From: Gammaproteobacteria bacterium
GTDB taxonomy: Bacteria; Pseudomonadota; Gammaproteobacteria; Pseudomonadales; Pseudomonadaceae
Direction: 5' to 3'
NCBI GenBank assembly: GCA_023475025.1
Contig: JAMCWB010000030.1
Location: 1,853-65,852, forward strand
DNA length: 64,000 bases
Below the pieces are notes generated by a model. The model was not told the DNA's origin and made no database searches. It saw nothing but the letters and a program-made list of their open reading frames with translations. Below, piece after piece: positions 17,289 through 40,464 of the stretch; within the stretch, counting starts at the first letter, position 1; each line of letters opens with the position of its first letter. The position numbers and the translations under genes are program-made.

Positions 17289-19082
17289 TTAACTTTCAAT
17301 ACTCAAAGCCCACCCCCTCCTGCCTAATGTCCGAAAGTCGCAACTCCCTGCAACCATTTGTTGATACTCGCGTGCGCCCTTAATTCCCCCGCGCAAGTAC
17401 CGATCGGATCCGCACTCAGCGCAATGAGCCTTGAATCCGGCTGGTTCCTGAAAAACAGGGCAAGCTGACCCACCGCATACAGGACAGACCTTCAATGCCC
17501 TGATCTCTTCGCTACGTTGTACCAGCTCATTCTCGAGCCGTATCGCATTGCCAGCCTTCAACACCTTATTCAGTTCGCCCAAGAGGTTTCCATCCAGCAC
17601 GTCCCTTACCTGGAGGGTTTTATTTTGTTGATCGACCCGCAGAGCAGAAGACCCCTTGGCCAGACTGAGAGCAGCAGTCGGGACTTTTATTAACGGTCGT
17701 CCATAGTTTTCCAACAGCAGTCCCTGCAAGACCCGATCAACCAATAAGCCAAATCGTTCCTCGCAGTACATATCCGAAGGGGAAAGCGGCACCCATTGCC
17801 CTTCAAAGGCGACCTGCGGCAGTTCTTGATCAAGTGCGGGCCAGGCGATGATCCGGTTGGTAGTAAGCTTCTGTTCAGAGGGGGCTTCCGCTGTCAGCCA
17901 AGGTACAACAGTCAGCAGTACCGCATCAGCGCTCACCAATTCCCACTCCAAGCCATTTTGTCGCAACGCCAGGGACCTGCCTGCCCAGTCCCCCTGGTCT
18001 TTCCCCCCTAGATACGGCTGCAGCGCTCGGCGTAAAACAAGGCCTGCGTAACGCGAATAAGCTTGAGCGAGATGCCGATTTCTTCTGAAACGCTCTTCAG
18101 CAGTTACTTTAGTTCCTGCCTGGCTGCGACCCAAAAGATCCCATAGAGCAGCCACATGCCGGTAGCTCGGATCATGGCTGAGGATATTCGTGCGATGCAA
18201 TCCGCTTTCAACCTGAGCGTTGCGGTCTACCAGCGTATACAGGCCACTTTGCTGCAACCCCCGGATTGCCTTTTGCAGGCTCTGCAGCGTGCTCAGTGAT
18301 TCATTCAAGAGCGCAGAGACTTTGCTGGTAGCACTCTGATCAAAGGTCCTACCCCATATATCACATACTGCATGGGCCAACCGATGATTGATATCGGCGG
18401 ACTCATAAAACTCCATAGCCTGGTCAAGTGTCGCCTGCAAACTACCAAGGGCCGATAGTCGATTACGCAGATGTCTGTCGATCTTGTCCAACAGCCTTGC
18501 GTATACACGGTTCTCGTAGATGCCGTAATCATCCTCACTGAAACGAGCCATTACCTTTCTTGGAATAACCCCGCTCAATGTTTGCCGCTGCCAATATTCG
18601 GAGTGGGACGCGAGGTGCACCAGCGCACCTTTTGACAACCTGCGTGCACGGGCTATATCTGTGACTTCATCCTCATAATGCATATCCAGTCGTGGTCGCT
18701 TGGAGATTCGGTGCAGATGCCCTTTGTTGAGCACCTCCCGCAACTTCTCTTCAAATGTCTGGAGATGTGCCTGATCATCTACAACTGCTGCTGGCATCAG
18801 AGGAGAAGGCAGCGTTTCCCCCTTCTGAATGTCAGCATCTATAGTGATAATTGCATTGAATAGCAGGTCGGCATTCGCAGTGTCGGCCTGTCCTGGAAGG
18901 ATGAAGGTTAGAATCTGCTTATCAAGCTGGCATCGCTGCCCACCGTCATCAACCAGTAGCCCCGAGAAGTCGGGCGTGTGACCATTCAAGGTGAGCCCTG
19001 TAGAGCCAGCCCAATAGCGCCCAGGCGCAACCTGCGGGGGCAGCGTCTTAAGCTGCGCCCCTGTCAGCCTATCCAACCACAT
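17289..19082 (-). CDS. McrC-like (DUF2357-type) partner protein with C-terminal zinc ribbon (CnuC-like)
   Basis: 597 aa with a 1-nt start/stop overlap on the McrB-like gene. DDYGIYENRVYARLL resembles the conserved ENR motif of McrC-family proteins. The C-terminal CPVCGG...CAECG is a zinc ribbon. No clear PD-(D/E)xK triad was seen by eye. Confidence 0.5.
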   Translation of the reverse strand: MWLDRLTGAQLKTLPPQVAPGRYWAGSTGLTLNGHTPDFSGLLVDDGGQRCQLDKQILTFILPGQADTANADLLFNAIITIDADIQKGETLPSPLMPAAVVDDQAHLQTFEEKLREVLNKGHLHRISKRPRLDMHYEDEVTDIARARRLSKGALVHLASHSEYWQRQTLSGVIPRKVMARFSEDDYGIYENRVYARLLDKIDRHLRNRLSALGSLQATLDQAMEFYESADINHRLAHAVCDIWGRTFDQSATSKVSALLNESLSTLQSLQKAIRGLQQSGLYTLVDRNAQVESGLHRTNILSHDPSYRHVAALWDLLGRSQAGTKVTAEERFRRNRHLAQAYSRYAGLVLRRALQPYLGGKDQGDWAGRSLALRQNGLEWELVSADAVLLTVVPWLTAEAPSEQKLTTNRIIAWPALDQELPQVAFEGQWVPLSPSDMYCEERFGLLVDRVLQGLLLENYGRPLIKVPTAALSLAKGSSALRVDQQNKTLQVRDVLDGNLLGELNKVLKAGNAIRLENELVQRSEEIRALKVCPVCGGSACPVFQEPAGFKAHCAECGSDRYLRGGIKGAREYQQMVAGSCDFRTLGRRGWALSIES

Positions 19083-21523
19083 TATCTGACATCCTCCAGA
19101 CGGCGAATATCAGCCTCCAGCAGCTGGTTGCAACTCGTTGGCTCACCGCCAAAGCCTGCATCAATCCAGAAAGTTTCCAGTGCATTCTGTACCGCTTTCA
19201 ATGCATCAAGGCTTACATCGTAACGACCGGTGACCTTGCCTTTTCGCATCACGCGCGTGGACAACAGGTGGTCCAGGGCTTCACCCTCGGACCCTCCCGC
19301 TGCCTTGATGACTGGGATGAAGCGCATTGCCTGCTTCTCAAAACGGTTCCCCCAACCCAAATCAAAATCCTTTTCCAGTAGTGTGGTCAAGGGGGCCTCG
19401 CTGAGCCATTTCAGCAAATCCCCGACCTCCTCCCCGTGCTTATTACATGCCTCATCAAAGGACTTGTTAAGTGAACTGTACGAAAAGCTTGTCGGATCGT
19501 AGCGCCTGACACCGAAGCGGTCGTCCTGCTTCGGCAGGGTCATCACATGAGCACGGTCATAGGTTTTATCGGCGAGCTCGTTAGTAGTTTCGTCATGGTT
19601 GGCAGTCCCGATAAACCAGACGTTACCCGGCACAAGTATTTTGCGCCCTTCGCGCAGCATCACCGGTGCATTAGGCATCGCCGTTTCCGCTAGACTGATC
19701 AACCTCTCGTCAGGGTTGTTCTTCTCAAGAGCGGACAAAAATTCAGCAAAATATTGCTCTGGCCGGGAGAGGTTCATCTCATCGAGCAGAATGACGTTAC
19801 AAGTATCCTTCCAGCGGGGCGTTTGAGCTTTATACAAGGCTTGCAGACAGTCCTTTTCATAAAAGCGCCGCTCGAAAGCGTTGTAATGGCCAAGCAAATC
19901 ATCACGGTCACGCCATCCTGCCTGCACAGCAATATCAGTACAGAACCCCCCCATTGCTTTAGCAAATGCTTTAGCCAGACTGGTTTTTCCTGTACCGCTG
20001 ATACCCTGAAAGACATGCAGCTGACTCATCGCCAGCCCACCGATCAGGGTACGAATATCTTCAAGACGATAAAACAGTTCAACGCTATCTTCTGCCTGGG
20101 CAATACGGTGCTGGAGCTCCTCAGCAAACTGCTCGAGCCCTGGCACAGGTTCATGCTCCATACTCGCGCGGTACTCCCGTTCCGTATCCATCAGCGACAT
20201 GGCCGGGAACGGCGTCTGGGTTTTCTGAGCGTTAGTCAGCTGATCAATACGGCTTTCAAGATCATCAATATGCACAGTCAGCGTGTTCTTGTGCTGTTCG
20301 AGTACACGTTTTTCGCGCGCTACAGCCTCAAGCTCAGTGGCAGCGACACGCCTCACGCTCAACTCACGTCTTAATTCGTCTCGCTCTGGCATAAGTGCCG
20401 CAAGATCCCGCTCAAGGTCAGCTTTACTACCACGCAGGTAATCGAGCTCTCGCTGTAGTTCGGCACTATCCGATTGTTCCAGCCGGCGTTTGAGAGAGTT
20501 ATTGTCCTGTCGCAAGTTATCGAGCTGCTCCAGAATGTCCGTCGCAGAGTGCTCACCAAGTGTCTGTTCCAACTCTCGCATACCCAAGAGTTGCTCCTTC
20601 AGCGCCTCGGTTTTCCCCCAAGCGCTGTCCAGCTGCCGCTCCAGCCTCGCCACAGCCTGCTCATGACTGGCGCGCTCCGCCTTCATTTCCAGGGTAACCC
20701 GCTGCTCCAGCTCTTGCTCTGCACCCTTGAGATCTGTCCATTCACGATCCAGCCTTCCACGGGCTCGATCCAGGTCCAGCTTGCTCTTACTTATTTCATG
20801 CTCGCGCTCATCTAGGAGCCTGACCCGCTTGGACTCCTCCTCTGAGCAGTTGAACTTGATCTCTGCCAGACGGCGCGCAGCCTCGCTCAGCTCGTCATCA
20901 AGCCTGCGCTTCTCATCTCTGAGCTCCTGCAGAATATCAGCCTGCTGTTTGAACAGCTCCTGCTGGCGCCGCTCAAGCTGACGCAGGGCCTGCTCATTCT
21001 GTTCCACAAAGCCAGCCTGGGCCTCGGCTTCACGCAGGCTCAGGGAGCGCCCAGTCTCCAAGAGTGCCGACTTCTGTTGCGCCAACTCAGCCTGTTCGGC
21101 AGACAGGGCGGCCCTTGCATCGTCATGGGTTTTTCTCTCCGCCTCGAGTGCGTCCCGCTCGATAACCAGCTTCTGCTCACGCTCCTCAATATCAGCAACC
21201 AGTCTGTTGGCTTCCTCCCAGCGACCGGAGTACTCATCCTTCAGTCGCTCCTTGAGTTTAACCAGCTCTTTACAGAATTCCGCGAAGCGCTCAATCCAAC
21301 GACCGAGCTCCGCATCCTCATCAGACTCGAATCTGTCCAGTACAACGCTCAGCCATTCCTGGTCGACAGGAATATCCATACTCATATCAAACGACTGGTA
21401 AACTTTGGAGGCACTCTCAAAAGACGCAGTCCACTTGTTATCCAACCCTGGGCGAGCCATTAAGACAGCGCCAGCCAACTGCTGGGCATTCTTGCTCGAA
21501 TTCTTCTTCGCCATTACATCCAT
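19082..21523 (-). CDS. Coiled-coil fused McrB-like AAA+ GTPase (CnuB-like)
   Basis: 813 aa. Residues about 80-440 are an E/R/L/Q-rich heptad-like coiled coil. The C-terminal AAA+ module has Walker A GISGTGKT, Walker B ILLDEMN and a McrB-type NxxD-like motif GTANHDET. Confidence 0.7.
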   Translation of the reverse strand: MDVMAKKNSSKNAQQLAGAVLMARPGLDNKWTASFESASKVYQSFDMSMDIPVDQEWLSVVLDRFESDEDAELGRWIERFAEFCKELVKLKERLKDEYSGRWEEANRLVADIEEREQKLVIERDALEAERKTHDDARAALSAEQAELAQQKSALLETGRSLSLREAEAQAGFVEQNEQALRQLERRQQELFKQQADILQELRDEKRRLDDELSEAARRLAEIKFNCSEEESKRVRLLDEREHEISKSKLDLDRARGRLDREWTDLKGAEQELEQRVTLEMKAERASHEQAVARLERQLDSAWGKTEALKEQLLGMRELEQTLGEHSATDILEQLDNLRQDNNSLKRRLEQSDSAELQRELDYLRGSKADLERDLAALMPERDELRRELSVRRVAATELEAVAREKRVLEQHKNTLTVHIDDLESRIDQLTNAQKTQTPFPAMSLMDTEREYRASMEHEPVPGLEQFAEELQHRIAQAEDSVELFYRLEDIRTLIGGLAMSQLHVFQGISGTGKTSLAKAFAKAMGGFCTDIAVQAGWRDRDDLLGHYNAFERRFYEKDCLQALYKAQTPRWKDTCNVILLDEMNLSRPEQYFAEFLSALEKNNPDERLISLAETAMPNAPVMLREGRKILVPGNVWFIGTANHDETTNELADKTYDRAHVMTLPKQDDRFGVRRYDPTSFSYSSLNKSFDEACNKHGEEVGDLLKWLSEAPLTTLLEKDFDLGWGNRFEKQAMRFIPVIKAAGGSEGEALDHLLSTRVMRKGKVTGRYDVSLDALKAVQNALETFWIDAGFGGEPTSCNQLLEADIRRLEDVR

Positions 21524-23001
21524 TCCTTAAAACATGCGGTAAAGCCCAGCGCGTACTGTATGCTGTCCAGCGCCATACGCGTCGTGAGTTGAATTGGTTC
21601 TTTCCCTGTGTATTCGCTCTGGGCGTGGCTGCTCTTGTTGCGCAGGTCGGCCACCTTCAGCAGCTTATCCAGTTGCAACTCGCTAGGACCTAGAGCCCTG
21701 AGCGGATGCCCCGGCTCATCGAGCGTACCCATTGCTGCAGCAAACAGCAGAGCCTTGAGCGAGGAAACTGGGCTGGAGCAAGCCCTGATCACCTGATCCA
21801 GACTCTGCCTTGAAAGCGCAACGCTTACCGGCCCGGTCAACGCAGGAACCGGCAGCGCAGAAAGGAGCTGTTGATTCAAACTGAAGTTGTTTTTTTTCAG
21901 CTTTGGCAACTGCCCCTCATTAGCTGGGTAAGTCCGGATCAGCCATTGCATGACCACTTCCAGCAGTTTCTGACTTTCCACCAGCGCGGCATCCAGCTCC
22001 TGCCCACTATGGTCATCCCTTAGTTTCTCGCGACGCACCAACAACGCGCCCAAATGGCGTTTGATATCTGGCTGCCGCTCTACCCAAGGATATTCAACCA
22101 GGATCTGAAACTCCGTTTGCTGTCGGAGTGCTTGCAACCACTGCTCCACGCTCTGCTCATCGGTACGTGGGATGCTTACGAGATTCTCAAGGTAAGTAAG
22201 GAGATGGGCGTTCTGCTCAACCAGCTGCAGAAATGCTTCGTTCAGCCACCAAGCGTTTTCACGCAGACCGAAGGGGTCCTTGACCGACCACAAATCCAGT
22301 CCGTCACTATCGCCAGTCACCCATACCAACACACGGGCGGATTGCGCAACATCATCCAACCGCTGCACACCCTGCAAACTGACCTGTTCAGGTAACCCGG
22401 TCCATTGGCCAAGCTGCTGGCTGGCGCTATAGTCTTCACGATAGTCACGATAAGCCCGCATCAAGGTGTCGTGGTCCAGCGCAGGCAACTCGGTGCGTGG
22501 CACTGAAAACTTGAAAGGCCTGTAGGTTTTACCTGTTCTTCGCTCCGTCAAGAACTCCGGAAAGTGGGCCAATGGGTCCACAGGCTCTATCTGGCTCAAC
22601 TGGACAACCAGCCGTGGCCAGAAGCGGCCATCTACTGCATCCTGCAGCAAATAACCGGATTTCATGTTGGTCTCAGCCACGTCCTCATCATCCAGCAAGC
22701 TCTCGCCTTTAGCTGTAAGCGCATCGGCGCTATCTACAAGCCATCCGTTGCTGACCCCTTGCGCAAGTATCAACTTGATCAGGTTAAGGTGGAGCCCGGT
22801 CAGAGCCGCCATATCTTCCGGGCGCGCGGTTCTTGCGCGCACCAGCCCCAGCACGGCGCGCTGTAACAGATTCAACTGCGACCGCTTTGGATCGGGATAC
22901 AGAACACGATGAACCAGTACGGGCCAGAGCAGCGACCGTTTCTTACCAAACGGTTTGGGGCCAAATGAGAGATACATACCAGACTCAGCGAAGACTGCCA
23001 T
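21514..23001 (-). CDS. wHTH-like / HEPN-motif protein (predicted RNase)
   Basis: Track ORF 21514..23085. The start was moved to ATG 23001, which is preceded by GGAGGTGAGC. The C-terminal ADLRNKSSHAQ is an Rx4H HEPN signature. The rest has no recognisable motif. Confidence 0.55.
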   Translation of the reverse strand: MAVFAESGMYLSFGPKPFGKKRSLLWPVLVHRVLYPDPKRSQLNLLQRAVLGLVRARTARPEDMAALTGLHLNLIKLILAQGVSNGWLVDSADALTAKGESLLDDEDVAETNMKSGYLLQDAVDGRFWPRLVVQLSQIEPVDPLAHFPEFLTERRTGKTYRPFKFSVPRTELPALDHDTLMRAYRDYREDYSASQQLGQWTGLPEQVSLQGVQRLDDVAQSARVLVWVTGDSDGLDLWSVKDPFGLRENAWWLNEAFLQLVEQNAHLLTYLENLVSIPRTDEQSVEQWLQALRQQTEFQILVEYPWVERQPDIKRHLGALLVRREKLRDDHSGQELDAALVESQKLLEVVMQWLIRTYPANEGQLPKLKKNNFSLNQQLLSALPVPALTGPVSVALSRQSLDQVIRACSSPVSSLKALLFAAAMGTLDEPGHPLRALGPSELQLDKLLKVADLRNKSSHAQSEYTGKEPIQLTTRMALDSIQYALGFTACFKEWM

Positions 23002-26000
23002 GCTCACCTCCACACATCTGGTGGAACGCAGCCAGAGCGGGTACCGCCTCTTGTGCCTCCGGGGCGGTAGCCAGCGCTGAGTCACCGACGCAGATCAACA
23101 TTTGCCTCTGACGGCTCATGGCAACGTTCATACGGTTGGGCAGCCTCAAGAACCCAAATTGCCGGTTGAGCTGCTTTTCCCGCTCGGCATCCCCCTCACT
23201 TCCCTGCCCCGGTGTTACAGGTTTATAGGTTCGAACACATGACAACAGCACAACATCAAACTCCTTGCCCTGGAACGCGTCGACAGAGCCAACCCGTAGC
23301 CGCTCTTCAGAGTTGACGGAGCCGTCCCCGCGCACCTTTCTTGTCCATTTGAAGATCTCATGGGGTTCGTAAGCTCCGTTGCGCAGCACCATCAGCGGTA
23401 CGCCATCGATGCGCTGCTCAGAGAGCTTCTCCATGATCAACTCGCGCTGTGCTGCATAGAAGGTTATGACACCCACCGATAGACTATCGCCACCAGCCTG
23501 CAGCAACCTCACTACCTCCTCGGCAATGCGCAGCGCCTCTACCTCCCTCACGCGACTTGTGCCTGAGCGCATCTCCTTACCCTGCCCCGCAGGCACATCT
23601 ATCCACTGGCAGACGCGGTCACGATAATGGCTAGCCAAAGGGCCAAGTCCGGCAAGGAAAGTCTCAGAAAAAACAAAATCCGCGGCGTCACGACCAGAAC
23701 GAATTCGCCCCAGCCCTTGGGATTCGTAAAATTGAGTACTTATAAAGTCACCAAGTAATGGGTGCATCCGGAACTGGGTGTCCAACATAACCACGCGACG
23801 GATATTGTCCTGCCTTTCAAGATCTTGCAGCTTGATACGCATTCGCTCGAACAGGCTCGAGCGAAAGGCCGCCAACTGCAGCTCGGTAAGCTGGTGCTCC
23901 GCCTGCAGCTGGCCCTCGATATCTGGCTCCAGCATGTGTGGTAACTGTCTGTCATCCCCGACCAAGACTATTCGGCGCTTTGCCATGGCCATAGGCACAA
24001 ACAGATCCAACGGGTTGGCACGGGCAGCCTCATCAATAACCACGGTATCAAATTCGATATCCGTGCTATCCAGATTCGATACTGATTTGAGGTTTGCCAT
24101 CTGCCTTCCTGCTGCCTGCTGGCAGGTAGCACCAACCACCATTGAATACTCATGCACGACCGCCTGTGCGGCGGCCCGGTCAATCGCCAGGCTATCCGCC
24201 AGCTGCTCCAGCACCCCGGCTACCCCCTGCTTACGCTGGCGCAGCCGGGTCTCCAGGTGTCGTTCAATCTCATCCAGCAGTGCCACCCCCTCTGGATCTG
24301 CCTGCTGCCTCAAGCTCACTGGTCGATAATCTGGCATATAAAGATCAAGTAACCGAGGCTTCCAGGCAGCCAGGTTTTGCAGCGTGGAGTCTTGAGTCTC
24401 TGTGCTATCCGCCGCCTCTTCCAGCACAGCAAACAGATCCGGATTGGTGTCTATGCCTTGACGCTTCAACCAACTGAGCAGGTCCCATGCGCGGTCCGGG
24501 CCATCGTCGTTAAATGAGGTCTCATCGACGCGAAGCGCTCTAACCCTTCTCAGAACCTGAACATTATGACCATCAACCGAAGTAGTAGGCGCCTGCCTTT
24601 GCAGTTGCTCGATGTACTCCTCGACCTGACTTTCAAGCCGCGGTGGCATTACCAAGCCACTTACCTCCAGCTCGCGCAACCCGTTCAAAATGCTCACGAA
24701 GCTCTCAGCCTGACTCCCGGGCGAAGCACCGGCAATTCTTGCCAAAGCCAGTTGGGTCGACAGATTCCGGACAAGCTCCAGTTCAGGATATTTGCCGTAC
24801 TGCTCGATCACCTTACCCTGCAGATGCTCGACCTGACGATCCAGCCATGGATCAATCAGGGAATCTTCTTCCTGCGCTCCCCGCTTACCACCCACTCGAG
24901 CCCCGGGCAGGCCAAACACATCGCTACGATCCAACGCGTTATCGACGGCGTCATGCTGGAAACTGCTGATCAGCACTTGCGCAGCAATATTATTCTCTTC
25001 AGCCTCTTCCGCGAGGCGGCGCTGCAGGGCTGCTATGACCTGAGTCTTACCGGTTCCTGGGGGGCCAATTATGATGGCCATATCAGGCGTGTTCAGTGCC
25101 GTATCCAACGCCAGGATCTGCTTCTCAGTGGGCTTGCCTCCCTTGAAGGTTTCCAATGCATACGGCGTCAGCCCCTTGATTGGACGGCGCCTGGAAGCGG
25201 GCACAGCCACACCTTCCAGCAACCACTTCAACTGGGGTAGTCGTTTCCCGGAATCAATCGACTGTTTTGCTGCCAGACGACGTTTACCCACCGTCCGCTG
25301 GCCGGCCAGCGACAGATAGATCCAGCCCTCAGGCTTTCTAGGGCGAATACTGCGGCGATTTGAAACTGGCTTGAAAACAACGCAGTTCTGCTCAAAGCGA
25401 ATTGTGCCCCGCGGATTATCCTGCTCAGCCTTCACTTCATCCGTAGTCAGTTCCTCAGCCCAGTCAGGGCGATCAACGCTGAGATCGACCTGCGTGCCTG
25501 CAGCAAGGTCCAGGTTGCGCCAACGTGAACGAAACTCTCTGTAATCGTCCAATGAGGCTGGCGTCAGTCGCCAGACGTTTTCGCGGCCCTCTTCATGCCC
25601 TTCCCATTCCACAAAGCGCAGGGCACGCAAGGTTTCAGCCTGAGTCAGCGCGGTTTGCCACTCCCTATCGTTGTAGAGATTCCATAGCTCCAGATAACTG
25701 GCACTGTCGCGCAACGCTGCATCAAGCGCCGCCCGATAACCAGGGCTGGCAAGAACAGCGGCAACCGACGCATCACGAAACGCAAACTGACCCAGGAGCA
25801 ATGAAAAGGCACCATCCCGGCGCGTATGACGGGTAATTCGCTTGATCAGTAACCCTTGATCCGCGCCCTGTTGCACATCTGCCCGCCAGCCCTTGCCCAC
25901 CAGCTGGAAAGCGCCACGGGATGTGCTGTTACTGAATCGTGCCACTGTGAGCCAGTCGCCCTCAGCTTGGTCGCGCACAAGAAAAGTCTCAGCCAACCAA

Positions 26001-30149: not shown

Positions 30150-30430
30150 TGACCTCCTTCTGATTGCAATCTGGCTTCTGCTGCTTTTTGCAGGATCTGC
30201 TCCCGATATTTTTCCTTCATCTGAATAACTAACGGCCCGACAATCGAATTGGACGCATATTCCGTAACCCGTAGATCAATAGTCTGGCTAATCTGATTGA
30301 TCGCTGACTCAATACTGGAAGGGTCATAAGGGTTAAATTTTACAACCCCAAGTTCACCATCCAACTCGGAGAGAGCACGCTGAGCGTCCTCGAGCTGTTT
30401 TTGCAGCTTATCAAAACCTTTGATTTTCAT
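30146..30430 (-). CDS. Small helical protein, unknown function
   Basis: Track ORF 30146..30448 (TTG). ATG 30430 is preferred because of AGGAGG 6 nt upstream. The stop overlaps the TIR-like start by 4 nt. Confidence 0.6.
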   Translation of the reverse strand: MKIKGFDKLQKQLEDAQRALSELDGELGVVKFNPYDPSSIESAINQISQTIDLRVTEYASNSIVGPLVIQMKEKYREQILQKAAEARLQSEGGQ

Positions 30431-30503: not shown

Positions 30504-30520
30504 AGCGAACATCGTGCCAA
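30504..30520 (-). promoter_or_regulatory. Sigma-54 (-24/-12) promoter P2
   Basis: The minus strand reads TTGGCACGATGTTCGCT, with correct GG-N10-GC spacing. It is about 60 nt upstream of the small-protein ATG and matches P1 at 16 of 17 positions. Confidence 0.65.
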
Positions 30521-30590: not shown

Positions 30591-30612
30591 AATATTACAT
30601 TTTGGTAATATT
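30591..30612. promoter_or_regulatory. AT-rich inverted repeat about 85 bp upstream of P2 (candidate enhancer/UAS)
   Basis: AATATTAC-N6-GTAATATT, followed by a third TATTAC. Confidence 0.35.
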
Positions 30613-30646
30613 TATTACCGCCACACAGTTGCCTTGGGAGGCGGCG

Positions 30647-31616: not shown

Positions 31617-32777
31617 CTACAGCTGGCCGGAGAAGGCTTGTTGGCTCAACGAGCTGGCTAATCTCTCCTGTGCTGCGAGAGCATCCAGAAGACGACCTCG
31701 GTGCGACTCAAAAGCTTTATAACGATCAAGGAAAGCTATTTGCTGCGCGTGCGGGGGCAAGGCCACTGGTGTTTTTGCAATCAACCCAACATTCAATGTG
31801 GGCTGGGCTACTGCACGAGTTTCCCGCTTGAAATAGCCTTGAACTACCGGACTCTGTAGGTAGCGATAAACATACTCGCGGTTTACGCCTTCACGAATAG
31901 GTATCCGCGTGACTGCTCGCGCAATATTCCATCCAATCATTGCATCGCTGGCCCAACCGACACGACCAATAGTGCCTACGCAAGCGATCAGAATTTCATT
32001 TCCTTTCAGCTTTGATTTCCTATGCTTCGAATCAATGCTTGCCGACACTCGCCTTAGCTGGGCGACGTCAGGAGTAACATCAGAAAGATCTCCAGACCTT
32101 ACCAATGGAACACCGTCCTCTTCGTGATCACCCGGCTGAACAACGCCGTAGTTCAATTTGTCATTGGGATCAATGAGCGTAGAAAGCTCAACGACATTCC
32201 ACCCCTTCGGATTCGTCACCGGATCACCAAACATCTCCAGAAACACGGCGCGGAGGAAGTCGTCGGCGAGCTGGATGGCTTGCTGGCGTTTGCGGCGAAT
32301 GGCGTCGGCCTTGTCGAGGATGGCGGCGATGCGCTTTTGTTCGGGCAGGGGTGGGAGGGGGATTTCTACTGCTTCAAGCTTGCCTTTAGTAATGTGCTTA
32401 AGGCCAACCCCGCCATGAGCCTGATCAATAATCAGGTCCAGCTTAGAATTTATTGCATATCGAAGATAATTTTTATCGATATGACGCTCATCAATATCAA
32501 CCCTAAAAATATGTTGATTTAGAAAGCCCTTGCCCCGATTCCAGAAGAATGCACCAAAGGAAGTCCCTGGAGTGCCAGACCAAGAGAAAAGCAAGTCCCC
32601 CGGATCCACGTGGAATCTTTTTTCCACCTCAAAATCGCAATAATTGAAAGGTTTAGTTTCATCATTGAGATTTTGGATTCGAACAATAGGAGTGCCCGAG
32701 GCCGACCACTCCTCCGGCTTAAATGCTCTCCCGTTCTGAAGGCTGCATACACTTCCAAAGGGAACGAGATTCATCAC
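31617..32777 (-). CDS. hsdS: Type I R-M specificity subunit
   Basis: 386 aa in a two-TRD layout with conserved LPPLPEQKRIAAILD and LPPHAQQIAFLD spacer helices. 4-nt overlap with hsdM. Confidence 0.88.
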   Translation of the reverse strand: MMNLVPFGSVCSLQNGRAFKPEEWSASGTPIVRIQNLNDETKPFNYCDFEVEKRFHVDPGDLLFSWSGTPGTSFGAFFWNRGKGFLNQHIFRVDIDERHIDKNYLRYAINSKLDLIIDQAHGGVGLKHITKGKLEAVEIPLPPLPEQKRIAAILDKADAIRRKRQQAIQLADDFLRAVFLEMFGDPVTNPKGWNVVELSTLIDPNDKLNYGVVQPGDHEEDGVPLVRSGDLSDVTPDVAQLRRVSASIDSKHRKSKLKGNEILIACVGTIGRVGWASDAMIGWNIARAVTRIPIREGVNREYVYRYLQSPVVQGYFKRETRAVAQPTLNVGLIAKTPVALPPHAQQIAFLDRYKAFESHRGRLLDALAAQERLASSLSQQAFSGQL

Positions 32778-34378
32778 AACATTCCCTCCAACTCATCCAG
32801 ATCCGCCATGATCTCCCGCTCCAGCGCCTTCAACCGCTGCAGTATCACCTTCGGGTCTTCGTATACTTCTTCCTCGTACACCACTTCCTTGTAGCGGTTG
32901 ATGGACAGATCGTACTTGTTGGCGGCGATATCGGCGGCGGGGACGACGAAGGCTTTCCGGGTCTTGTCACCAAAGATGGTGTCGATGCTGGAGGCCTTGA
33001 GGTTGCTTTCGACCATCTGCCGGTACTTGTGCCACTGGCCGATGGCATCGGGCAGGTCGTTGCTGCCCTCGCCTTTCAGCTCGGCGCGCTTGTCATCCAG
33101 CGAGTAGCCGTCGGCCTGCAGGTCATAAAACCACACACGCTCGGTGCTGCCGCCCTTGGTGAAGATGAGGATGGCGGTGCTGACGCCGGCGTAGGGTTTG
33201 AACACGCCGCTAGGCAGGCTGACGATGCCTTCGAGCTGGTTGTTGTCGAGCAGCTCCTGACGCAGTTGCTGGTGGGCCTTGGATGAGCCGAACAGCACAC
33301 CGTCCGGCACGATCACGGCGGCGCGACCACCGAGTTTGAGCGAGCGCAGGATGTGGGCGACAAACAGCAGCTCGGTCTTCTTGGTTTTCACCAGACCGAG
33401 CACGTCGGGGTTGGTGTTGCTTTCATCCAGGCTGCCTTTGAATGGCGGGTTGGCCAGCACCACATCGAAAAAGTTTTCTTCCTGCTCGGGGTAGTGCTCC
33501 TTGATCGATTTGCTCAGGGAGTCCTGGTACAGGATGTTGGCGCCATGCACGCCGTGCAGCATCATGTTCATGCTGGAGACGCGCAGCATGGTGGTATCGA
33601 AGTCGAAGCCCCAGAACATGCTGCGGTTGATGTGCTCACGGTAAGGCTCCAGCAGGTCGCCGGTGTAATGTTTGTTGCCGTCTTCATCGGTAAAGATGCC
33701 GGCTTCGCTGGAGTGCTCGCGGTTAAGGTATTCCATGGTGCGGGCGAGGAAGCCGGCGGTACCGCAGGACGGATCGCAGATAACATCGGTAGGCTGCGGG
33801 GCAACCAACTCGATCATGGCGTCGATGATGTGGCGAGGCGTGCGGAACTGACCGTTGATGCCGGCGGTGGTCAGTTTGCTCAGCAGGTATTCGTAGATAT
33901 CGCCCTTTACATCACTCTGGTTCAGCGGCAGGTCGTTGACCATTTCCACGGCGGAGGTCAGCACCGATTCGTTCTTGATCTCCAGATCGGCGTCCTGCAT
34001 GTATTCGCCGATATGCCCCAGCCCCTCCAGTGCACTGCCTTCATCACCCAGGCCATCGGCGTTGTCAGACTGCTTGCCCAATTTGGCAAAGTAGGGGTAA
34101 ACCTTGTGCCGGAGGTGGCTGTGCAGCTCCTTGCCGCTCATGTTGCGGAAGTTTTTCCAGCGCAGCAGCTGGCCTTCCGGGGTATTGGGAAACAGCCGGT
34201 CAAAGACCTTGCCGGTGCGATTGGCCTTGCGCTCGGCGACGTCTTCCTGCATGTCGAGCATGCGGGCGAACATCAGGTAGCTGATCTGTTCGATCACTGT
34301 CAGCGGGTTGGTGATGCCGCCGGTCCAGAATTTTTCCCAGAGTTTGTCTATGTCGTTACGGATTTTGCCAGTGAGCAT
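32774..34378 (-). CDS. hsdM: Type I R-M N6-adenine DNA methyltransferase
   Basis: Motif [11 protein letters not shown] and motif IV NPPFKGS, with an HsdM N-terminal domain. Confidence 0.92.
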
Positions 34379-34385
34379 GGGTGTT

Positions 34386-35450
34386 TCAATTGTCCTGTTG
34401 TGGTGTATCTGATTGGTATCGGGCGGCTGCTTCCTTCAGGCGCAGCACTCTTTCCCGTTCGCGCTCCAGTTCCCGTGCCAGTTCCTCTTCAGTGGGCAGG
34501 GCTGTGAGGTATTTGGAGGCGAACAATTGCTTGCTTTCGCTGAGCACGGAGTATTTGGCGACGGTGTTATTGCGCTCGCTGCACAGAATCAGCCCGATGG
34601 TCGGGTTGTCGTCGGGGCGGCGTTTGTGTTCTTCATACATGCGCACATACATGTCCATCTGGCCCACGTCCTGGTGGGTGAGCTTGTGCATTTTCAGGTC
34701 GATCAGCAGAAAGCATTTGAGATGAAAGTTGTAGAACACCAGATCGATGAAGTAGTCGCCGTCATCGGTGCGGATGCGTTGCTGGCGTTCGACGAAGGCA
34801 AAGCCCTTGCCCAGCTCCAACAGGAACTGCTGCAGGTTGGAGATGATGCCCTGTTCGAGGTCGCTTTCCTGCCAGGTTTTATCCGGCAGGTTGAGAAAGT
34901 CGAGGATGTAGGGGTCGCGCAGGTAATGTTTGGGATCATCCTGCAGCGGCTCGGTTTTCTCCTGTGCTTCCTGCTCGACAGTGGACTTGTCCTTGCTGGC
35001 GAGCAGGCGCTCGTAATACAGCGTGCCGATCTGGCGCTCCAGTGCGCGGACGCTCCAGTTCTCATCCGCCGCCTCATCCGCATACCACTGCCTGGCAGCA
35101 GGGTTCTCAATACGCATCAGGGTTCGATAGTGGCTCCAGCTCAAAACACTACGCAGTGTGTAGTGTTTTGGGAAAGTCAGGTAGAACTGCCGCATATTGC
35201 GCAGGTTGCCCACATCAAACCCTTTGCCAAACTCGGCCTGCAGGCGCTCTGACAACTGTTTGAGCTGCTGCTTGCCGTACTCTGCCCGCTGCTGCCCTTG
35301 CTGCTCCTGCTCTACAATCAAGCGGCCGATATGCCAGTAGGCCTGAACCATGTGCTGGTTGACCGCCTGCCTGACCTGCTGGCGGGCCTGGGCAATGACT
35401 TCTGCTATGGCCTGATAAAGCGTGCCCGGCACCAGATCCTTACTGGCCAT
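34386..35450 (-). CDS. YhcG/DUF1016-type PD-(D/E)xK nuclease-like protein
   Basis: Start placed at ATG 35450 (AGGAGG 7 nt upstream) within track ORF 34386..35489. The core reads [20 protein letters not shown]. The gene is inserted between hsdR and hsdM. Confidence 0.8.
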
Positions 35451-38400
35451 GCTGAGCCTCCTGCTTGATGAATGGTTCAAGCACTGCAATCAGATCGCCG
35501 ACGTCATCCGGCGTGAACACACCGTCGATGCCCTCATGGGAAATGCTGTCGAAGGGAGGCTCATAGAGTTTGTCGACAACGATGCTGCCGTGTTGGGCTA
35601 TATAGTTTTTCAGCAGGTTCATAAAGCGCACCTGCTGGGCGGTCAGCGTCGGGTGGTTGTGCAGGAAGCGCTTGAAGTGCTCCTCGATGGCCTGCGGGTC
35701 AAGCCCGATAATCTCGCGCACGGTCAGGTGCAGCTGATCGGCAGTGCGCCCGTAGAACTCATTGAGCACCTCCAGGCTGACGCCGGGGTGGCTGGTGAGG
35801 ATGGTCGAGGTCAGGGTTTTCAGCTCCGGCTCGGCAATCGGCTCACCCTGGCGGATTTTCTGCAGGGTCGGGTTAGCAGCCAGCATGGCGTCAAGGATGT
35901 CCTTAAGCCGACGGCGGTAGATCATGGCTTCGTTGGCGCCAGCGATATACACCTGACGCTCATTGTTCTGGATGTTGCCATCACGGGTGCGCGTGCTGCC
36001 GATGTCGTAGCCGGGGCCCGTGCCGCTCTGGCGGTATTTCATGATGCTGCGCAACTCCTTGCGGGCATGCTCCAGCTTGGCAATGCTCGGCTGCTGCCAG
36101 AACGCAGCACTGCGTACTTCGGCAATCACTGCATCCTTCTGGCGCACGGCATTGATGTTCACTGCGAGCCTATCCAGCTCGGCCAGCAGTTCGGTCTTTC
36201 CGTCCTCGAAGCAACTGGCCTGCACTACCAGACAGCACTGAATACCGGCGATCAGCTTGTCGAAGGCCGTCGCGTGCTTGTCACGCAACACCCGGGCGGA
36301 CATCAGCGGGGCAATGGTGTTGCTCAACAGGTGTTGGGTTTTGCTGTCGAGTGTCTTGAGCATCGGAGTTTGTTGCAGCTGGTGCACCACCCGCAGCTCA
36401 CGCTTAACCGCCACACTGGTGTCCGGCAGATCATTGATGTCTGCCTGCAGCAACTCGACGGCCACATCAAAGGCGTCAGCGTGGTTGGCCTTGAGCGCGG
36501 CCTGCGCCAGTTGCAGGCGCGCTTCGAAGGTGGTCTGCAGCAGCGACTTGCTGCCGGTGTCCTCCGGCTCCAGGTATTCCTGCTCGAAGAAATCGAAGTT
36601 GCCGTAGTGATCGAAAATGAGGAATTCGCTCTTGTGCTTGCCCGGCCCAAACAGATTGGGACGCAGGCGGGTGCCGCGGCCGATCATCTGCCAGAATTTG
36701 ACCCAGCTCTTCACTGGTTTGGCAAAGACCAGATTGACTACCTCGGGTACGTCGATGCCGGTGTCGAGCATGTCCACCGAGATGGCGATACGGAAGTCGT
36801 TGTCCGGTTTCTTGAATTCCTTGATCAGTGTTTCCACATGCGGAATGGCGTTGTGGATCACCTTGCAGACCTTGCTGCCATATTGCGGATACAGCTTGCA
36901 GAACAGTTTTTCCAGGTGCTCGGCATGATCCTGACGCTGGGCGAAGACGATGGTCTTGCCCACCAGTGAGCCAGTGTCATCCTGGATGCCATTATTGATC
37001 AGGTTCTCGAGGATGATGCGGTCGGTGTCTTCACTGAAGATCTTGCGGCCGATGTCCTTGCCGGCGATGGTGGTCTGCCGGGCTTCTTCCTCTCCCAGGT
37101 CCTCTTCCAGCTGACGTTGCTGTGCTTCGCTGAGCTGGCTGTAATGGATGCCGTCACGCAGAAAATCGGTGGTCAGGTCCTTGACCCGGAAGGGCACCAG
37201 ATAGGGTGGCTCGTTGTTGATGGCCGCATCCAGCCCGAATTCAAAGGTCGGGTCGGTGGTTTCACAGTCGAACAGGTCGAAGGTATTGCGACTGATGAAT
37301 TTAACCGGTGTCGCGGTCAGCCCGACCTGCATGGCATCGAAGTAATCAAACAGGTCGCGGTACTTGTTGTAGATGCTGCGATGGCTTTCGTCGGCGATGA
37401 TCAGGTCGAAAAAGCCAACATCCAGCTGGGCAAAGCGGTTCATCATGCCCGGATAGGTGGCAATGAAGATGCGAGCGGTCTGATCCACCTTGCTGGTTTC
37501 ACCAATGACGCAACGCGGCTCACTGGGGAGATTCTGCTTGAAGGCATCATCGGCTTGCACGCGCAGTTCCTTGCGATCACAGAGAAACAGCACGCGCTTG
37601 GCCCAGCCGGTACGCAGCAGTAATTCCGCTAGGGCGATGGCAACACGGGTCTTGCCCGTGCCAGTGGCCTGAATGATCAGCGCCTTGCGCCGCTGGCTCT
37701 GGAAGTGCGCGGCGACAGTCTTGATTGCTTCGATCTGGTAGGGCCGATCGGCAATGCTCAACTGCGGGTTGTGCTTTTCCAGCGCCTGGACCCGATATTG
37801 GCGCTGGTAAATCAGGTATTCCAGGCTGTCCTTGCTGTAGAGGCCGTACACCGGGCGATAGGTGTTGTACTGGGCATCGTCCCAGATGAAGGTTTCATAG
37901 CCGTTGCTATAGAAAATTACTGGCCGCTGCATGCCCATGCGTTCAAAACCATCGGCATACATACGCGCTTGTTCACGTCCAGCTTGCAGGCTGACGTTGC
38001 CAGACTTCTTCGCCTCGATCACGGCGAGTGGCTGGCCGTTGTCGCCCCACAGCACATAGTCAGCACGACCTTTACCGGACGGGTTATCCGGGAAATCCAC
38101 CTCGACTTCATGCCCTACCTGCGCAGGGTTAGCCACATCCCAGCCGGCCTGCAGCAGCATCGCATCAATCAATAGGGTTCGGGTCTTGGCTTCATTCCAC
38201 TGCAGGCTGTCGGCTACCTGCTGGCTCTCGCGTTGGCGTTTCTGTTGATCGGGGCGGGCCGGCGGCTCAAGCTTCTCAATATTGCGGGTGCGCTGCTGTT
38301 CCAGCTCGGCAATCACCTGCTGCAAGGCTTCCTGCTTCTGGGACAGCTCTTTTTCGTAATTGGATACCGACTGCTGCAACCCCTTGATGGCCGCCGTGGG

Positions 38401-38835
38401 GTCGGCAACCTCAACAAACTCGGGAATGGTGTCGTGCTGCACACCGTAGTATTTGACGGCCATATACATGGCCAGCTGGTGCGATGTCTTCAATGCCAAC
38501 TGGGCATTGCGCAGGTCGCCTTCCGCACCATGGGCGGCGTCATTGCCCTGGATACGCAAAAAATTGATCTGATGGATCAGCGATTTGCTCACGCAGTCGG
38601 CAAATACCGGGTTTTTCACCAGATCGTAAAAGCTGGCCTGGGGCAGACGTGGAAGCGTCTCTTCCTTGTAGATGGTTTTGGTCAGCTCTTCGGCAAAGCT
38701 GCGCAACCGGGTCAACGCGCTGCCGGGGTCGACATGCAGTACCGCTTCGGCCAGCCCGCCAAGATTGGCCAGCACTTCATTGCCGGGGCGCAGAAATTCA
38801 AAATTCACTGATGTCATAAAGGCTATTGTGTCCAT
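35440..38835 (-). CDS. hsdR: Type I restriction enzyme R subunit with N-terminal DUF4145-like module
   Basis: Nuclease GRADYVLW...VIEAKKS, helicase QATGTGKT and ADESHRS, and an EcoEI-R-type C-terminal domain. The N-terminal 110 aa carry RIQGNDAAHG. The start is uncertain (38835 or Met7 at 38817). Confidence 0.9.
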   Translation of the reverse strand: MDTIAFMTSVNFEFLRPGNEVLANLGGLAEAVLHVDPGSALTRLRSFAEELTKTIYKEETLPRLPQASFYDLVKNPVFADCVSKSLIHQINFLRIQGNDAAHGAEGDLRNAQLALKTSHQLAMYMAVKYYGVQHDTIPEFVEVADPTAAIKGLQQSVSNYEKELSQKQEALQQVIAELEQQRTRNIEKLEPPARPDQQKRQRESQQVADSLQWNEAKTRTLLIDAMLLQAGWDVANPAQVGHEVEVDFPDNPSGKGRADYVLWGDNGQPLAVIEAKKSGNVSLQAGREQARMYADGFERMGMQRPVIFYSNGYETFIWDDAQYNTYRPVYGLYSKDSLEYLIYQRQYRVQALEKHNPQLSIADRPYQIEAIKTVAAHFQSQRRKALIIQATGTGKTRVAIALAELLLRTGWAKRVLFLCDRKELRVQADDAFKQNLPSEPRCVIGETSKVDQTARIFIATYPGMMNRFAQLDVGFFDLIIADESHRSIYNKYRDLFDYFDAMQVGLTATPVKFISRNTFDLFDCETTDPTFEFGLDAAINNEPPYLVPFRVKDLTTDFLRDGIHYSQLSEAQQRQLEEDLGEEEARQTTIAGKDIGRKIFSEDTDRIILENLINNGIQDDTGSLVGKTIVFAQRQDHAEHLEKLFCKLYPQYGSKVCKVIHNAIPHVETLIKEFKKPDNDFRIAISVDMLDTGIDVPEVVNLVFAKPVKSWVKFWQMIGRGTRLRPNLFGPGKHKSEFLIFDHYGNFDFFEQEYLEPEDTGSKSLLQTTFEARLQLAQAALKANHADAFDVAVELLQADINDLPDTSVAVKRELRVVHQLQQTPMLKTLDSKTQHLLSNTIAPLMSARVLRDKHATAFDKLIAGIQCCLVVQASCFEDGKTELLAELDRLAVNINAVRQKDAVIAEVRSAAFWQQPSIAKLEHARKELRSIMKYRQSGTGPGYDIGSTRTRDGNIQNNERQVYIAGANEAMIYRRRLKDILDAMLAANPTLQKIRQGEPIAEPELKTLTSTILTSHPGVSLEVLNEFYGRTADQLHLTVREIIGLDPQAIEEHFKRFLHNHPTLTAQQVRFMNLLKNYIAQHGSIVVDKLYEPPFDSISHEGIDGVFTPDDVGDLIAVLEPFIKQEAQHGQ

Positions 38836-38846
38836 GCTGGTTGAAT

Positions 38847-38863
38847 AGCGAAGATCGTGCCAA
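38847..38863 (-). promoter_or_regulatory. Sigma-54 (-24/-12) promoter P1
   Basis: The minus strand reads TTGGCACGATCTTCGCT, with GG-N10-GC spacing. It begins 3 nt after the activator's stop codon and ends 12 nt before the hsdR ATG. Confidence 0.65.
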
Positions 38864-38865
38864 CA

Positions 38866-40350
38866 CTATTCAATGCCGTACTTCTCCATCCAGTTAGTCA
38901 GCGTTTGCTGGCTTTTCAGACCCAGTAATTTGGCTGCTCGGGTCTTGTTACCTGCTGTCTGCTGCAGTGCCTGCTCTAGGTAAGGGCGCACAAATTCGCC
39001 AAGTAGCGCTTGTATATCAATGCCTTGAGAGACATCGAGCCCAGTTGACTTGTCCATCTTAGCAGGCATATCAAACAACGCACCGGCCATATCCTGTTGT
39101 TCGATAGTATCACCTTGGCACCAAAGTGCAGCCCGCACTAGTGTCGCTTGCAGTTCACGAACATTTCCTGGCCACGCATGCTGAAGTACAAGTTTTTTTC
39201 CTTCAGCAGAAATTTTCTTACCGGCCAGAGCGGTATCCTGCCTGCCGATTACCGCCAGCAGCGCTTCGCACAGCAGCAACAAATCACCCTCCCGCTCCCG
39301 CAAAGGCGGCAGATGCAGTACGCCCACTGCAACCCGGTAAAATAGATCTTCACGAAAGCAACCCGCTGCAACATCCGCCATCAGATTGCGGTGGGTCGCA
39401 GCAACCAGCCGGACATCCACACGTTGCTCTACTGACCCGCCCACTGGCGTACACACCCCTTCCTGCAACACTCTCAGTAGACGGACCTGAACGTCGGCCG
39501 CCAGCTCACCAAACTCGTCAAGGAAAAGGGTGCCACCGTCAGCCTGCTGGAAAACCCCAAGCCGGTCAGCAATGGCACCGGTAAAAGCCCCCTTTTTGTG
39601 ACCAAACAATGTTGAGTCGATCAACTCGGAAGGAATGGCGCCACAGTTCACCGCTACAAAGGGCTTGGCTGCTCGCGGCCCAGCATTATGGATCGCCCTG
39701 GCAAACAGCTCTTTGCCGGTACCGGTTTCACCATAGATCAGCACAGGTACCAGCTTTTGCGCTAGCACCTCTGCCTGCTGCTTAAGCAACAGCATGGTTT
39801 TATTTCGCGTGATGATATTGTCGAAGGCCGCATTAACCGGTGCCGCCTGCATGAGCATGTTGTTCAAACTGGCGGCACTGATTTCTGCGGCAGCCGGCAC
39901 ATACTCCGCAGCGATCTCAAAGGGTATGTCGATCTGCTGAACGCCCTGCTCCAGCGAGGATTGGTAATAGAGGGCGGGATAGCGCGTCTTGCCCAGCAGA
40001 ATCCATACTGCCTGCATCGCAGGCGTACCCGGACTGAGCAAAATGGCCAGAGGCTCACCGCTGCTCTGCAGCCTGCGCAAATGACGCTCTGCAGCCTGAT
40101 AAATCTCGGCAAAGTTGACCGGTGAGCTCAGGGGCTCGTGGTAAACATTCAGCGGCGTTTCGGTATTCTCCGCCAGCCAGGCGCGGTAGCTCTCCAGCTG
40201 CTCTGGCGGATAGGAACAAAGCAGTTCAGCCCTGGCAAAGCTGCCAGCATGCAATGTAGAAAGCACAGGGCCCGGCAGACCGCCAGCCGGCGCTTTGAGA
40301 TCATTCCCGCCAATCCAGCTCACCAGAATCGGCAACTGCTTTTTCACCAT
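38866..40350 (-). CDS. RtcR-like sigma-54-dependent activator (CARF - AAA+ - Fis HTH)
   Basis: The N-terminal CARF-type signature LLSPGTPAMQAVWILLGKTRYPALYYQSS parallels E. coli RtcR HITTGTHVAQICWFLL. The AAA+ module has GETGTGKE and GAFTGA. The C-terminal HTH reads NKTRAAKLLGLKSQQTL. ATG 40350 is preferred over TTG 40362. Confidence 0.8.
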   Translation of the reverse strand: MVKKQLPILVSWIGGNDLKAPAGGLPGPVLSTLHAGSFARAELLCSYPPEQLESYRAWLAENTETPLNVYHEPLSSPVNFAEIYQAAERHLRRLQSSGEPLAILLSPGTPAMQAVWILLGKTRYPALYYQSSLEQGVQQIDIPFEIAAEYVPAAAEISAASLNNMLMQAAPVNAAFDNIITRNKTMLLLKQQAEVLAQKLVPVLIYGETGTGKELFARAIHNAGPRAAKPFVAVNCGAIPSELIDSTLFGHKKGAFTGAIADRLGVFQQADGGTLFLDEFGELAADVQVRLLRVLQEGVCTPVGGSVEQRVDVRLVAATHRNLMADVAAGCFREDLFYRVAVGVLHLPPLREREGDLLLLCEALLAVIGRQDTALAGKKISAEGKKLVLQHAWPGNVRELQATLVRAALWCQGDTIEQQDMAGALFDMPAKMDKSTGLDVSQGIDIQALLGEFVRPYLEQALQQTAGNKTRAAKLLGLKSQQTLTNWMEKYGIE

Positions 40351-40464
40351 CCATGCCCCCAAACAGCCATTCTTGTCTGTCCACTACACAAGCCAACAGA
40401 ACTGCTTAGTGCTCAGCTCACTACAACCTGAAAAGCTCAGCCATCACAACGCAGTTTATGCCAT

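Follow-up and report, generated by a model that had tools for sequence, protein, structure and literature searches.

Two candidate sigma-54 promoters in a probable RtcR-associated Type II CoCoNuT superoperon of a Halopseudomonas-like gammaproteobacterium

How is a defence array of 15 co-directional genes switched on: from one promoter, with the distance along a single transcript deciding which arm acts first, or from several? We addressed this question for a locus in a 64,000-nucleotide (nt) stretch of contig JAMCWB010000030.1 (assembly GCA_023475025.1; this whole stretch is referred to as the window). Here, genes for an RtcR-like CARF activator, a Type I restriction-modification (RM) system, an Mrr-type endonuclease, a TIR-domain protein, and a CoCoNuT block follow one another on the minus strand. 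Judging from promoter motifs and their conservation, at least two sigma-54 units under one CARF-type activator describe the locus better than a single 23-kb transcript does. As a whole, it very probably represents an RtcR-associated Type II CoCoNuT superoperon with two predicted sigma-54 promoters, located in a tRNA-Arg-flanked island of a Halopseudomonas-like gammaproteobacterium.

From 17289 to 40362, the minus strand contains 15 long open reading frames (ORFs), as shown by an ORF listing and a junction script; the genes span 17289-40350, the annotated start of the activator being ATG 40350 and not TTG 40362. A preliminary description of this DNA had announced 17 consecutive ORFs, while its own list names 15, and the NCBI annotation of the source metagenome-assembled genome likewise contains exactly 15 consecutive proteins, MCL5042053 (CnuC) to MCL5042067 (activator). 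Our translations match 13 of these 15 exactly; CnuB and the Ser/Thr kinase (STK) have no exact match under the start codons used here, in the case of CnuB probably as a result of a different annotated start. The arrangement itself was described correctly. All 15 genes are co-directional, and the script confirmed the 1-nt TGATG-type overlaps at 28482 and 27790, the 4-nt overlaps at 30146-30149 and 32774-32777, the 1-nt overlap at 19082, and exactly three gaps above 50 nt (55 nt between hsdS and mrr, 198 nt between mrr and a small ORF, and 84 nt between the TIR and VWA genes). Overlaps of 50 and 101 nt are an artefact of taking the longest ORFs, and with the annotated starts they measure 11 and 17 nt (YhcG 35450, CnuE 23001). 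Such a row of 14 same-strand neighbours, mostly overlapping or a few nucleotides apart, is far beyond chance. Gene identities were assigned by Pfam, PADLOC, and NCBIfam profile scans of the ORF translations, which support all the domain calls made beforehand: the activator, the Type I RM genes with YhcG, Mrr, TIR, the VWA/PP2C/STK group, the helicase, the HEPN-motif protein, and the McrB-like and McrC-like proteins.

At the head of the array, the activator matches the PADLOC family RtcR_PspF2--CARF_AAA_HTH over its full length (E=2.5e-204). Pfam assigns Sigma54_activat, AAA_lid_14, and HTH_8 domains to it, and residues 40-136 show weak matches to the Csx1/Csm6 CARF families of PADLOC. RtcR-like CARF-NtrC-HTH proteins were linked to RM systems already in 2014 (PMC4012209).

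We searched for sites where such a protein might act with the sigma-54 pattern TGGCAC-N5-TTGC, the criterion being GG-N10-GC with TGGCAC/TTGC-like elements. The search returned two minus-strand intergenic sites in the locus, P1 and P2, each with one mismatch and alike at 14 of 15 bases. Both had been anticipated as sigma-54 promoter-like sites, and both turned out to be conserved in relatives. The sole perfect match to the pattern in the window, TGGCACCGTACTTGC at 9027-9041 (plus strand), lies outside the island. Aligning the P1 region directly with the P2 region gave no useful information, and a direct-repeat search of the locus yielded only short repeats at chance level.

P1 lies between the activator gene and hsdR. 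A scan with the activator protein, taking one genome per species, revealed a P1-like site 0-45 nt past the activator stop codon in eight of the ten closest full-length relatives among the matches listed (L001-L005, L008-L010). These eight belong to Pseudomonas, Metapseudomonas, Halioglobus, Geobacter, Polaromonas, Planctomycetota, and Spirochaeta, and in all of them hsdR-hsdM-hsdS comes next. A ninth relative (L006) carries TTGGCACGAAATATGC at the P1 position, as recognised by eye; L011 has no P1-like site after the activator stop codon, and five more distant relatives have one about 105-110 nt downstream of the activator. The LRxxGNxAAH motif in the N-terminal DUF4145 of HsdR is likewise kept in all activator-linked HsdRs, across phyla. 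In several relatives (L001, L002, and L093), the -12 region of P1 is part of an inverted repeat, for example GGTCCT-N8-AGGACC, which is missing from the window; this repeat could be an operator.

The spacing between P1 and hsdR is short and is also shared. In the window the first hsdR ATG is found 12 nt past the -12 GC, and across six loci (the window, L001-L004, and L093) the distance is 11-13 nt, with the next ATG, the one called by NCBI, 18 nt further on. Gene callers disagree on which is used: in the window the first ATG, at 38835, gives a protein of 1131 aa, and the alternative start at 38817 gives the 1125 aa of NCBI. The first ATG sits at the predicted sigma-54 transcription start, and the mRNA may therefore be leaderless. 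Whichever ATG is used, this spacing predicts a leader that is absent or very short and has no Shine-Dalgarno sequence.

The preliminary description and the model of Bell et al would have all of this transcribed as a single 23-kb polycistronic superoperon from an activator-proximal promoter, gene order setting the timing so that DNA restriction comes first. The uniform orientation and the presence of only three gaps above 50 nt are what this reading predicts, and the RM-then-CoCoNuT order recurs in relatives (also PMC11090510). Moreover, none of the three long gaps was flagged in a terminator scan, and the folds of the gaps and the 3' flank were no better than those of shuffled sequence. P2, on the other hand, argues against it. 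This near copy of P1 lies in the largest gap, together with a palindrome of its own and just downstream of a GC-rich hairpin with a T-run after it. When metagenomes were scanned with CnuH, 18 related CoCoNuT loci were identified, 14 of which include the start of VWA, and in 13 of these 14 a TGGCA[CT]-N5-..[GC]C site is found 49-75 nt before that start (background, 0.013 per 130 nt). This placement directly before the CoCoNuT block holds whatever lies upstream of P2.

The palindrome, GTAA-N6-TTAC, occurs once in the 64-kb window, compared with 0.17 occurrences expected, and it begins 79-102 nt before TGGCA, both here and in 8 of the 13 related P2 regions. Its position and symmetry fit an enhancer, or upstream activating sequence (UAS), for a Fis-type HTH. 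The CoCoNuT half thus has a predicted sigma-54 promoter and an enhancer-like palindrome of its own. With P2 before the CoCoNuT, the notion that restriction comes first and the RNA response later by virtue of transcription distance is weakened, and the proposal of a single unit with distance-set timing was not sustained; we regard it as distinctly improbable.

Between P2 and VWA, the window contains the small ORF and the TIR gene (29154-30504, minus strand), whereas in the 13 related loci P2 directly precedes VWA. This pair resembles an insertion that has taken over the CoCoNuT promoter P2.

If P2 serves the CoCoNuT separately, the two halves might also have separate regulators. The array would then be a mosaic of independent, co-oriented defence systems, in which the activator regulates the Type I RM only and the CoCoNuT is constitutive or under another enhancer-binding protein. 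In many phyla the activator-P1-hsdRMS cassette indeed stands alone, with no CoCoNuT genes within 10 kb downstream, and P1 lacks the palindrome present at P2. Mrr and the small ORF with TIR are inserts that vary and that most relatives lack, and the seven-gene CoCoNuT core works when cloned without the activator (bioRxiv 10.64898/2026.04.06.716636). What makes a mosaic unlikely to us is that the core elements of P1 and P2 are nearly identical and that the same activator family appears next to P2 elsewhere. In L095 and L096, the palindrome, P2, and VWA come immediately after an activator gene (67% identity); L093 has the order activator, P1, a 64-codon HsdR remnant, P2, and VWA, and in L094 the two are likewise separated by an HsdR remnant only. 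These layouts connect the CoCoNuT promoter with the activator family. In agreement with this, Bell et al report RtcR-like CARF activators at the 5' end of CoCoNuTs as a systematic linkage, especially in Pseudomonas (PMC11090510).

A far-reaching version of the two-promoter reading, which we rate as somewhat less likely than not, is that the activator directly fires both sigma-54 promoters. P1 would produce a leaderless or near-leaderless hsdR mRNA, with its AUG within about 20 nt of the start, and P2 would respond through the GTAA-N6-TTAC enhancer, making the restriction subunit, the TIR protein, and the CoCoNuT infection-inducible. In the explanation that we favour as probable, the CARF domain would sense an infection or RNA-damage signal, which by analogy with RtcR might be RNA ends with a 2',3'-cyclic phosphate, and the AAA+ domain would open sigma-54 complexes at P1 and P2. 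The P1 unit would consist of hsdR-yhcG-hsdM-hsdS, perhaps with mrr, and the P2 unit of the small ORF, TIR, VWA, PP2C, STK, cnuH, cnuE, cnuB, and cnuC, so that HsdR restriction, the TIR protein, and the CoCoNuT would be induced in parallel and not sequentially on one 23-kb transcript. As to the CoCoNuT itself, its TerY-P triad (VWA/PP2C/STK) would provide a phosphorylation switch, the CnuH helicase and the wHTH-HEPN (winged helix-turn-helix and HEPN) RNase CnuE would cleave RNA, and CnuB/CnuC would serve as a McrBC-like NTPase scaffold with an inactive nuclease. Products of HEPN cleavage bearing terminal cyclic phosphates, made by CnuE and possibly by the DUF4145 of HsdR, could in turn feed back on the CARF sensor.

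Several results weigh against this explanation. In the window, GTAA-N6-TTAC was absent from the 400 nt upstream of P1, from the 3' end of the activator gene, and from the DNA upstream of that gene; eight relatives likewise have none at the matching distance before P1. No clear intrinsic terminator separates the units, and read-through from P1 into the CoCoNuT is therefore possible. Furthermore, P1 and P2 are candidate promoters by motif and conservation only. Structure searches gave little for two of the proteins: Foldseek with the full-length models found no PDB match for the HEPN bundle of CnuE and nothing meaningful in the PDB for CnuC, for which a profile search against PDB sequences was equally negative. 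Finally, the NCBIfam RtcR equivalog matches the activator at residues 65-484 with 318.5 bits, about half of its 650-bit cut-off.

Because this score is far below the ortholog cut-off and no rtcBA lies nearby (neither RtcA nor RtcB was found among the window ORFs scanned by profile), the activator is, on profile evidence, an RtcR-like paralog and not an RtcR ortholog. The RtcR-rtcBA regulon of E. coli and Salmonella has in common with our locus a CARF-AAA+-HTH enhancer-binding protein and a sigma-54 promoter. However, that regulon is divergent, whereas the activator described here is co-directional with its presumed targets, which are restriction and CoCoNuT genes.

Table 1. Coordinates of the genes and candidate control elements, in window positions, listed from the 5' end of the array.
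Feature	Coordinates	Strand	Details
RtcR-like CARF-AAA+ (sigma-54 interaction)-Fis-type HTH enhancer-binding protein	38866..40350	-	494 aa; exact match MCL5042067
P1, predicted sigma-54 -24/-12 element	38848..38862	-	TGGCACGATCTTCGC; starts 3 nt past activator stop codon
HsdR, Type I restriction subunit, N-terminal DUF4145	35440..38835	-	Pfam ResIII, HSDR_N, EcoEI_R_C, Helicase_C, DUF4145; PADLOC REase_I, 1459 bits
YhcG/DUF1016 PD-(D/E)xK nuclease inside RM cassette	34386..35450	-	354 aa; exact match MCL5042065
HsdM methyltransferase	32774..34378	-	Pfam N6_Mtase E=9e-62, HsdM_N; exact match MCL5042064
HsdS specificity subunit	31617..32774	-	385 aa; Pfam Methylase_S, two stretches; exact match MCL5042063
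Mrr-type Type IV restriction endonuclease	30647..31561	-	Pfam Mrr_N, Mrr_cat; PADLOC mREase_IV E=5e-90
GTAA-N6-TTAC palindrome, putative upstream activating sequence	30605..30618	-	GTAATAAATATTAC; starts 99 nt upstream of P2 TGGCAC
P2, predicted sigma-54 -24/-12 element	30505..30519	-	TGGCACGATGTTCGC; in the 198-nt gap between mrr and the small ORF
Small protein	30146..30430	-	94 aa; AGGAGG upstream; stop overlaps TIR start; MCL5042061, present on 29 contigs
TIR-domain protein	29253..30146	-	CAP12/Pycsar-type TIR at C-terminus, helical N-terminus; Pfam CAP12-PCTIR_TIR E=4e-39
VWA, TerY-like	28482..29153	-	First gene of the seven-gene block; Pfam VWA, VWA_2
PP2C phosphatase	27790..28482	-	Pfam PP2C_2 E=3e-37
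STK with C-terminal zinc ribbon	26381..27790	-	Pfam Pkinase; PADLOC kinase families; CNGC 314, CFFC 335
CnuH, Upf1-like SF1 helicase	22985..26374	-	Pfam AAA_11, AAA_12; NCBIfam IGHMBP2-family; PADLOC MkoA E=3e-81
CnuE, wHTH and helical C-terminal domain with HEPN-type motif	21514..23001	-	495 aa
CnuB, coiled-coil-like helix (~360 aa) and McrB-like NTPase	19082..21523	-	813 aa; Pfam AAA_5; PADLOC PDC-M26A
CnuC, McrC-like	17289..19082	-	597 aa; N-terminal small beta domain, putative DUF2357 helical region, beta-rich region, 4-Cys zinc ribbon
tRNA-Arg(CCG), left boundary of low-GC defence island	16804..16880	+	ARAGORN, Rfam, GC profile

The genes downstream of P2 identify the class of the locus. 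By the definition of Bell et al, the CnuB of a Type II CoCoNuT has a coiled coil and an NxD signature. Its CnuC is reduced, bears a zinc ribbon, and keeps a PD-(D/E)xK region that lacks the catalytic motif, its CnuH is related to UPF1 and contains a large insertion after Walker A, and its CnuE combines a wHTH with a single HEPN motif; there is also a TerY-P triad in which the kinase has a zinc ribbon, and the cnuE gene overlaps cnuB (PMC11090510). The preliminary description had matched the gene order to CoCoNuT superoperons, and our results agree, placing it among the RtcR-associated Type II CoCoNuTs of Bell et al (2024; PMC11090510). The CARF activator is at the 5' end, Type I RM follows, and the CoCoNuT comes last, all co-directional, an order seen in part in L093, L094, and L098. 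From VWA to CnuC, gene order is the same in all 18 related metagenome loci, 11 of which hold the whole block, the other seven contigs ending inside it. The triad of VWA, PP2C, and zinc-ribbon STK lies directly upstream of cnuH in the window and, in the same order, wherever a related contig reaches that far (complete in 14 of 18 loci); VWA itself is 59-91% identical to its counterparts in these 14.

CnuB contains the motifs GISGTGKT (Walker A), LLDEMN (Walker B), and GTANHDE (NxD), all invariant in 14 homologs and situated within the C-terminal 345 residues. A single-sequence search of the PDB with CnuB found nothing, and McrB was recovered only with a profile of the NTPase domain built from 14 sequences, the best PDB sequence matches being E. 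coli McrB (6hz4, 6ut6, and 7vsr; E=9e-4). This match, together with a DUF2357 match in CnuC at 23.2 bits, just below the 23.3-bit cut-off, might suggest that CnuB and CnuC are a conventional DNA-cleaving McrBC Type IV restriction enzyme with unrelated neighbours. Canonical McrBC of E. coli (6hz4, 6ut6) also has an AAA+ NTPase with Walker A and B motifs and a DUF2357 partner encoded immediately downstream. However, the canonical enzyme combines an NxxD signature with a DNA-reader N-terminus and a nuclease-competent McrC, and the proteins of our locus appear to differ on each of these points. The NHD of CnuB aligns to the NTAD of McrB (GLMNTAD) and is one residue shorter, giving NxD and not NxxD. 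Instead of a DNA-binding domain, the N-terminal ~360 aa appear to form a coiled coil, as judged from composition (67% A/E/L/Q/R/K in residues 80-440; three prolines in all, one before residue 438) and from weak NCBIfam SMC/Rad50 coiled-coil matches. In CnuC, the beta-rich region (residues 360-435) contains no D...(D/E)xK that is invariant in the homolog alignment. The overlap of cnuE with cnuB and the inheritance of the seven genes as a block also argue against unrelated neighbours, and we consider a conventional McrBC highly implausible. For the remainder of CnuC, C533, P534, C536, C554, and C557 of the zinc ribbon are invariant (two CxxC pairs), PF09823 is precomputed on about 13 of 120 homologs among the matches listed, and the AF2 model reaches a pLDDT of 83 and a pTM of 0.81.

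The helicase and the presumed RNase also agree with a Type II assignment. In CnuH, Walker A (residues 437-444) and Walker B (VVIDEA, 778-783) are about 335 aa apart, as expected for a large insertion, and residues 1-400, where an SmpB-like OB fold and a RelE-like RTL domain are reported for CnuH proteins of this type, have no profile match in Pfam, PADLOC, or NCBIfam. CnuE has an elongated wHTH and a single predicted HEPN domain with RxxxxH, assigned by motif and profile: R454-N455-x3-H459 (RNxxxH) is the only such motif and is invariant in a 39-sequence alignment, and the homologs match Pfam wHTH-PRTase_assc in 38 of 39 cases and HEPN_RiboL-PSP in 10 of 39. A Foldseek search of the PDB with the AF2 model of CnuE (pLDDT 83) led to MarR-type wHTH domains. 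One CnuE homolog bears the NCBI name 'DUF4145 domain-containing', which hints at a HEPN-like relationship with the DUF4145 of HsdR.

The kinase part of PADLOC MkoA is matched by STK and its helicase part by CnuH, and the N-terminus of CnuE weakly matches MkoB, which recalls type I Mokosh (MkoA kinase-helicase plus MkoB). Unlike in Mokosh, kinase and helicase are separate genes here, and the effector motif is of HEPN type and not a PLD nuclease; VWA, PP2C, and CnuBC have no Mokosh counterpart. A split Mokosh was rejected, as no PLD effector is present and VWA, PP2C, and CnuBC are inherited together with these genes.

Upstream of P2, the Type I RM set is complete, with HsdR, HsdM, and HsdS all found by Pfam and PADLOC. 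The YhcG nuclease encoded within it matches Pfam YhcG_C (E=4e-57) and DUF1016_N (E=4e-48), as well as PADLOC PDC-S02 (E=4e-150). The first 110 residues of HsdR (38500-38835, minus strand) also resemble the N-terminus of the PADLOC candidate PDC-M16A. Among the insert genes, the TIR protein matches PADLOC PDC-S35 (E=1e-71) and, weakly, the Cap12 NADase of NCBIfam, while no family in Pfam, PADLOC, or NCBIfam matches the 94-aa small protein.

The arrangement published by Bell, Sahakyan, Makarova, Wolf, and Koonin (eLife 2024, Fig. 8; PMC11090510) has the same gene content and order, the same cnuE/cnuB overlap, and a Pseudomonadaceae host. Extra in our locus are YhcG in the RM cassette, Mrr, and the small ORF with TIR, which separates VWA from the CoCoNuT promoter. 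That work contains no description of the sigma-54 promoters or of the palindromic enhancer-like site; these elements appear to be newly described, the class and its gene content being already known.

According to the preliminary description, no such locus had been tested, a statement that is now outdated. Obangsin (Obs) of P. aeruginosa PMM16 is a seven-gene locus, obsA to obsG/cnuC, which was found through transposon insertions in obsC and obsG and which its authors equate with Type II CoCoNuT (bioRxiv 10.64898/2026.04.06.716636, April 2026). When cloned, it protects P. aeruginosa against the ssRNA phages PP7 and LeviOr01 and the DNA phage MPK7 (bioRxiv 10.64898/2026.04.06.716636). By the authors' description, and not by sequence comparison, these seven genes correspond to VWA through CnuC here. 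The homologous core that defends excludes the activator and RM, Obs having been assayed from a plasmid without them, unlike the full array described here.

The array is part of a low-GC island (0.50-0.58, compared with about 0.60 in the flanks), bounded on its left by the tRNA gene. No second copy of the tRNA-Arg 3' end, as an att repeat, was found in the window, and an Rfam scan returned tRNA only. In the region 40465-42292, a minus-strand XRE-family HTH gene lies 114 nt upstream of the activator, with the same spacing on a Tara Oceans contig, and is followed by a divergent AlpA-like gene and a tyrosine integrase, which is thus in the middle of the island and not beside the tRNA. Just past the integrase (42515-44012, plus strand) are genes for an HD-domain protein with weak Cas3-HD similarity and for a DUF6957 protein. 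Three co-directional genes at 45606-47527 (minus strand) may be an RNA-end-processing or defence module: the first has a HAD_SAK_2 phosphatase domain, the second encodes a metallophosphatase of calcineurin-like type (PADLOC candidate PDC-S10, E=8e-92), and the third an exonuclease of DEDDh/RNase T type. At 48012-52720 (plus strand), there is a complete type II CBASS with an HNH-SAVED effector (PADLOC SAVED_HNH, E=5e-231), a CD-NTase (E=4e-235), an E1/E2 ThiF-like Cap2, and a JAB Cap3.

Both the class and the protection that its core gives against RNA and DNA phages have already been reported, and the locus by itself is therefore no discovery. Novelty is confined to the additional inserts of this member (YhcG, Mrr, and the small ORF with TIR) and to the promoter and enhancer elements. 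The value of the locus lies in being a compact example with readable control elements, namely two conserved candidate sigma-54 promoters and one candidate enhancer site, which make the hypothesis of a CARF-tuned, echeloned defence experimentally addressable. The two promoters suggest a change to the timing model, with parallel induction taking the place of distance along one transcript. On the far-reaching version of this reading, the activator, P1, and HsdR with its DUF4145 would form an ancient, phylum-spanning module of inducible restriction, to which CoCoNuTs were attached later. The conserved activator-P1-hsdR cassette also raises the question of how a Type I RM system tolerates an inducible restriction subunit.

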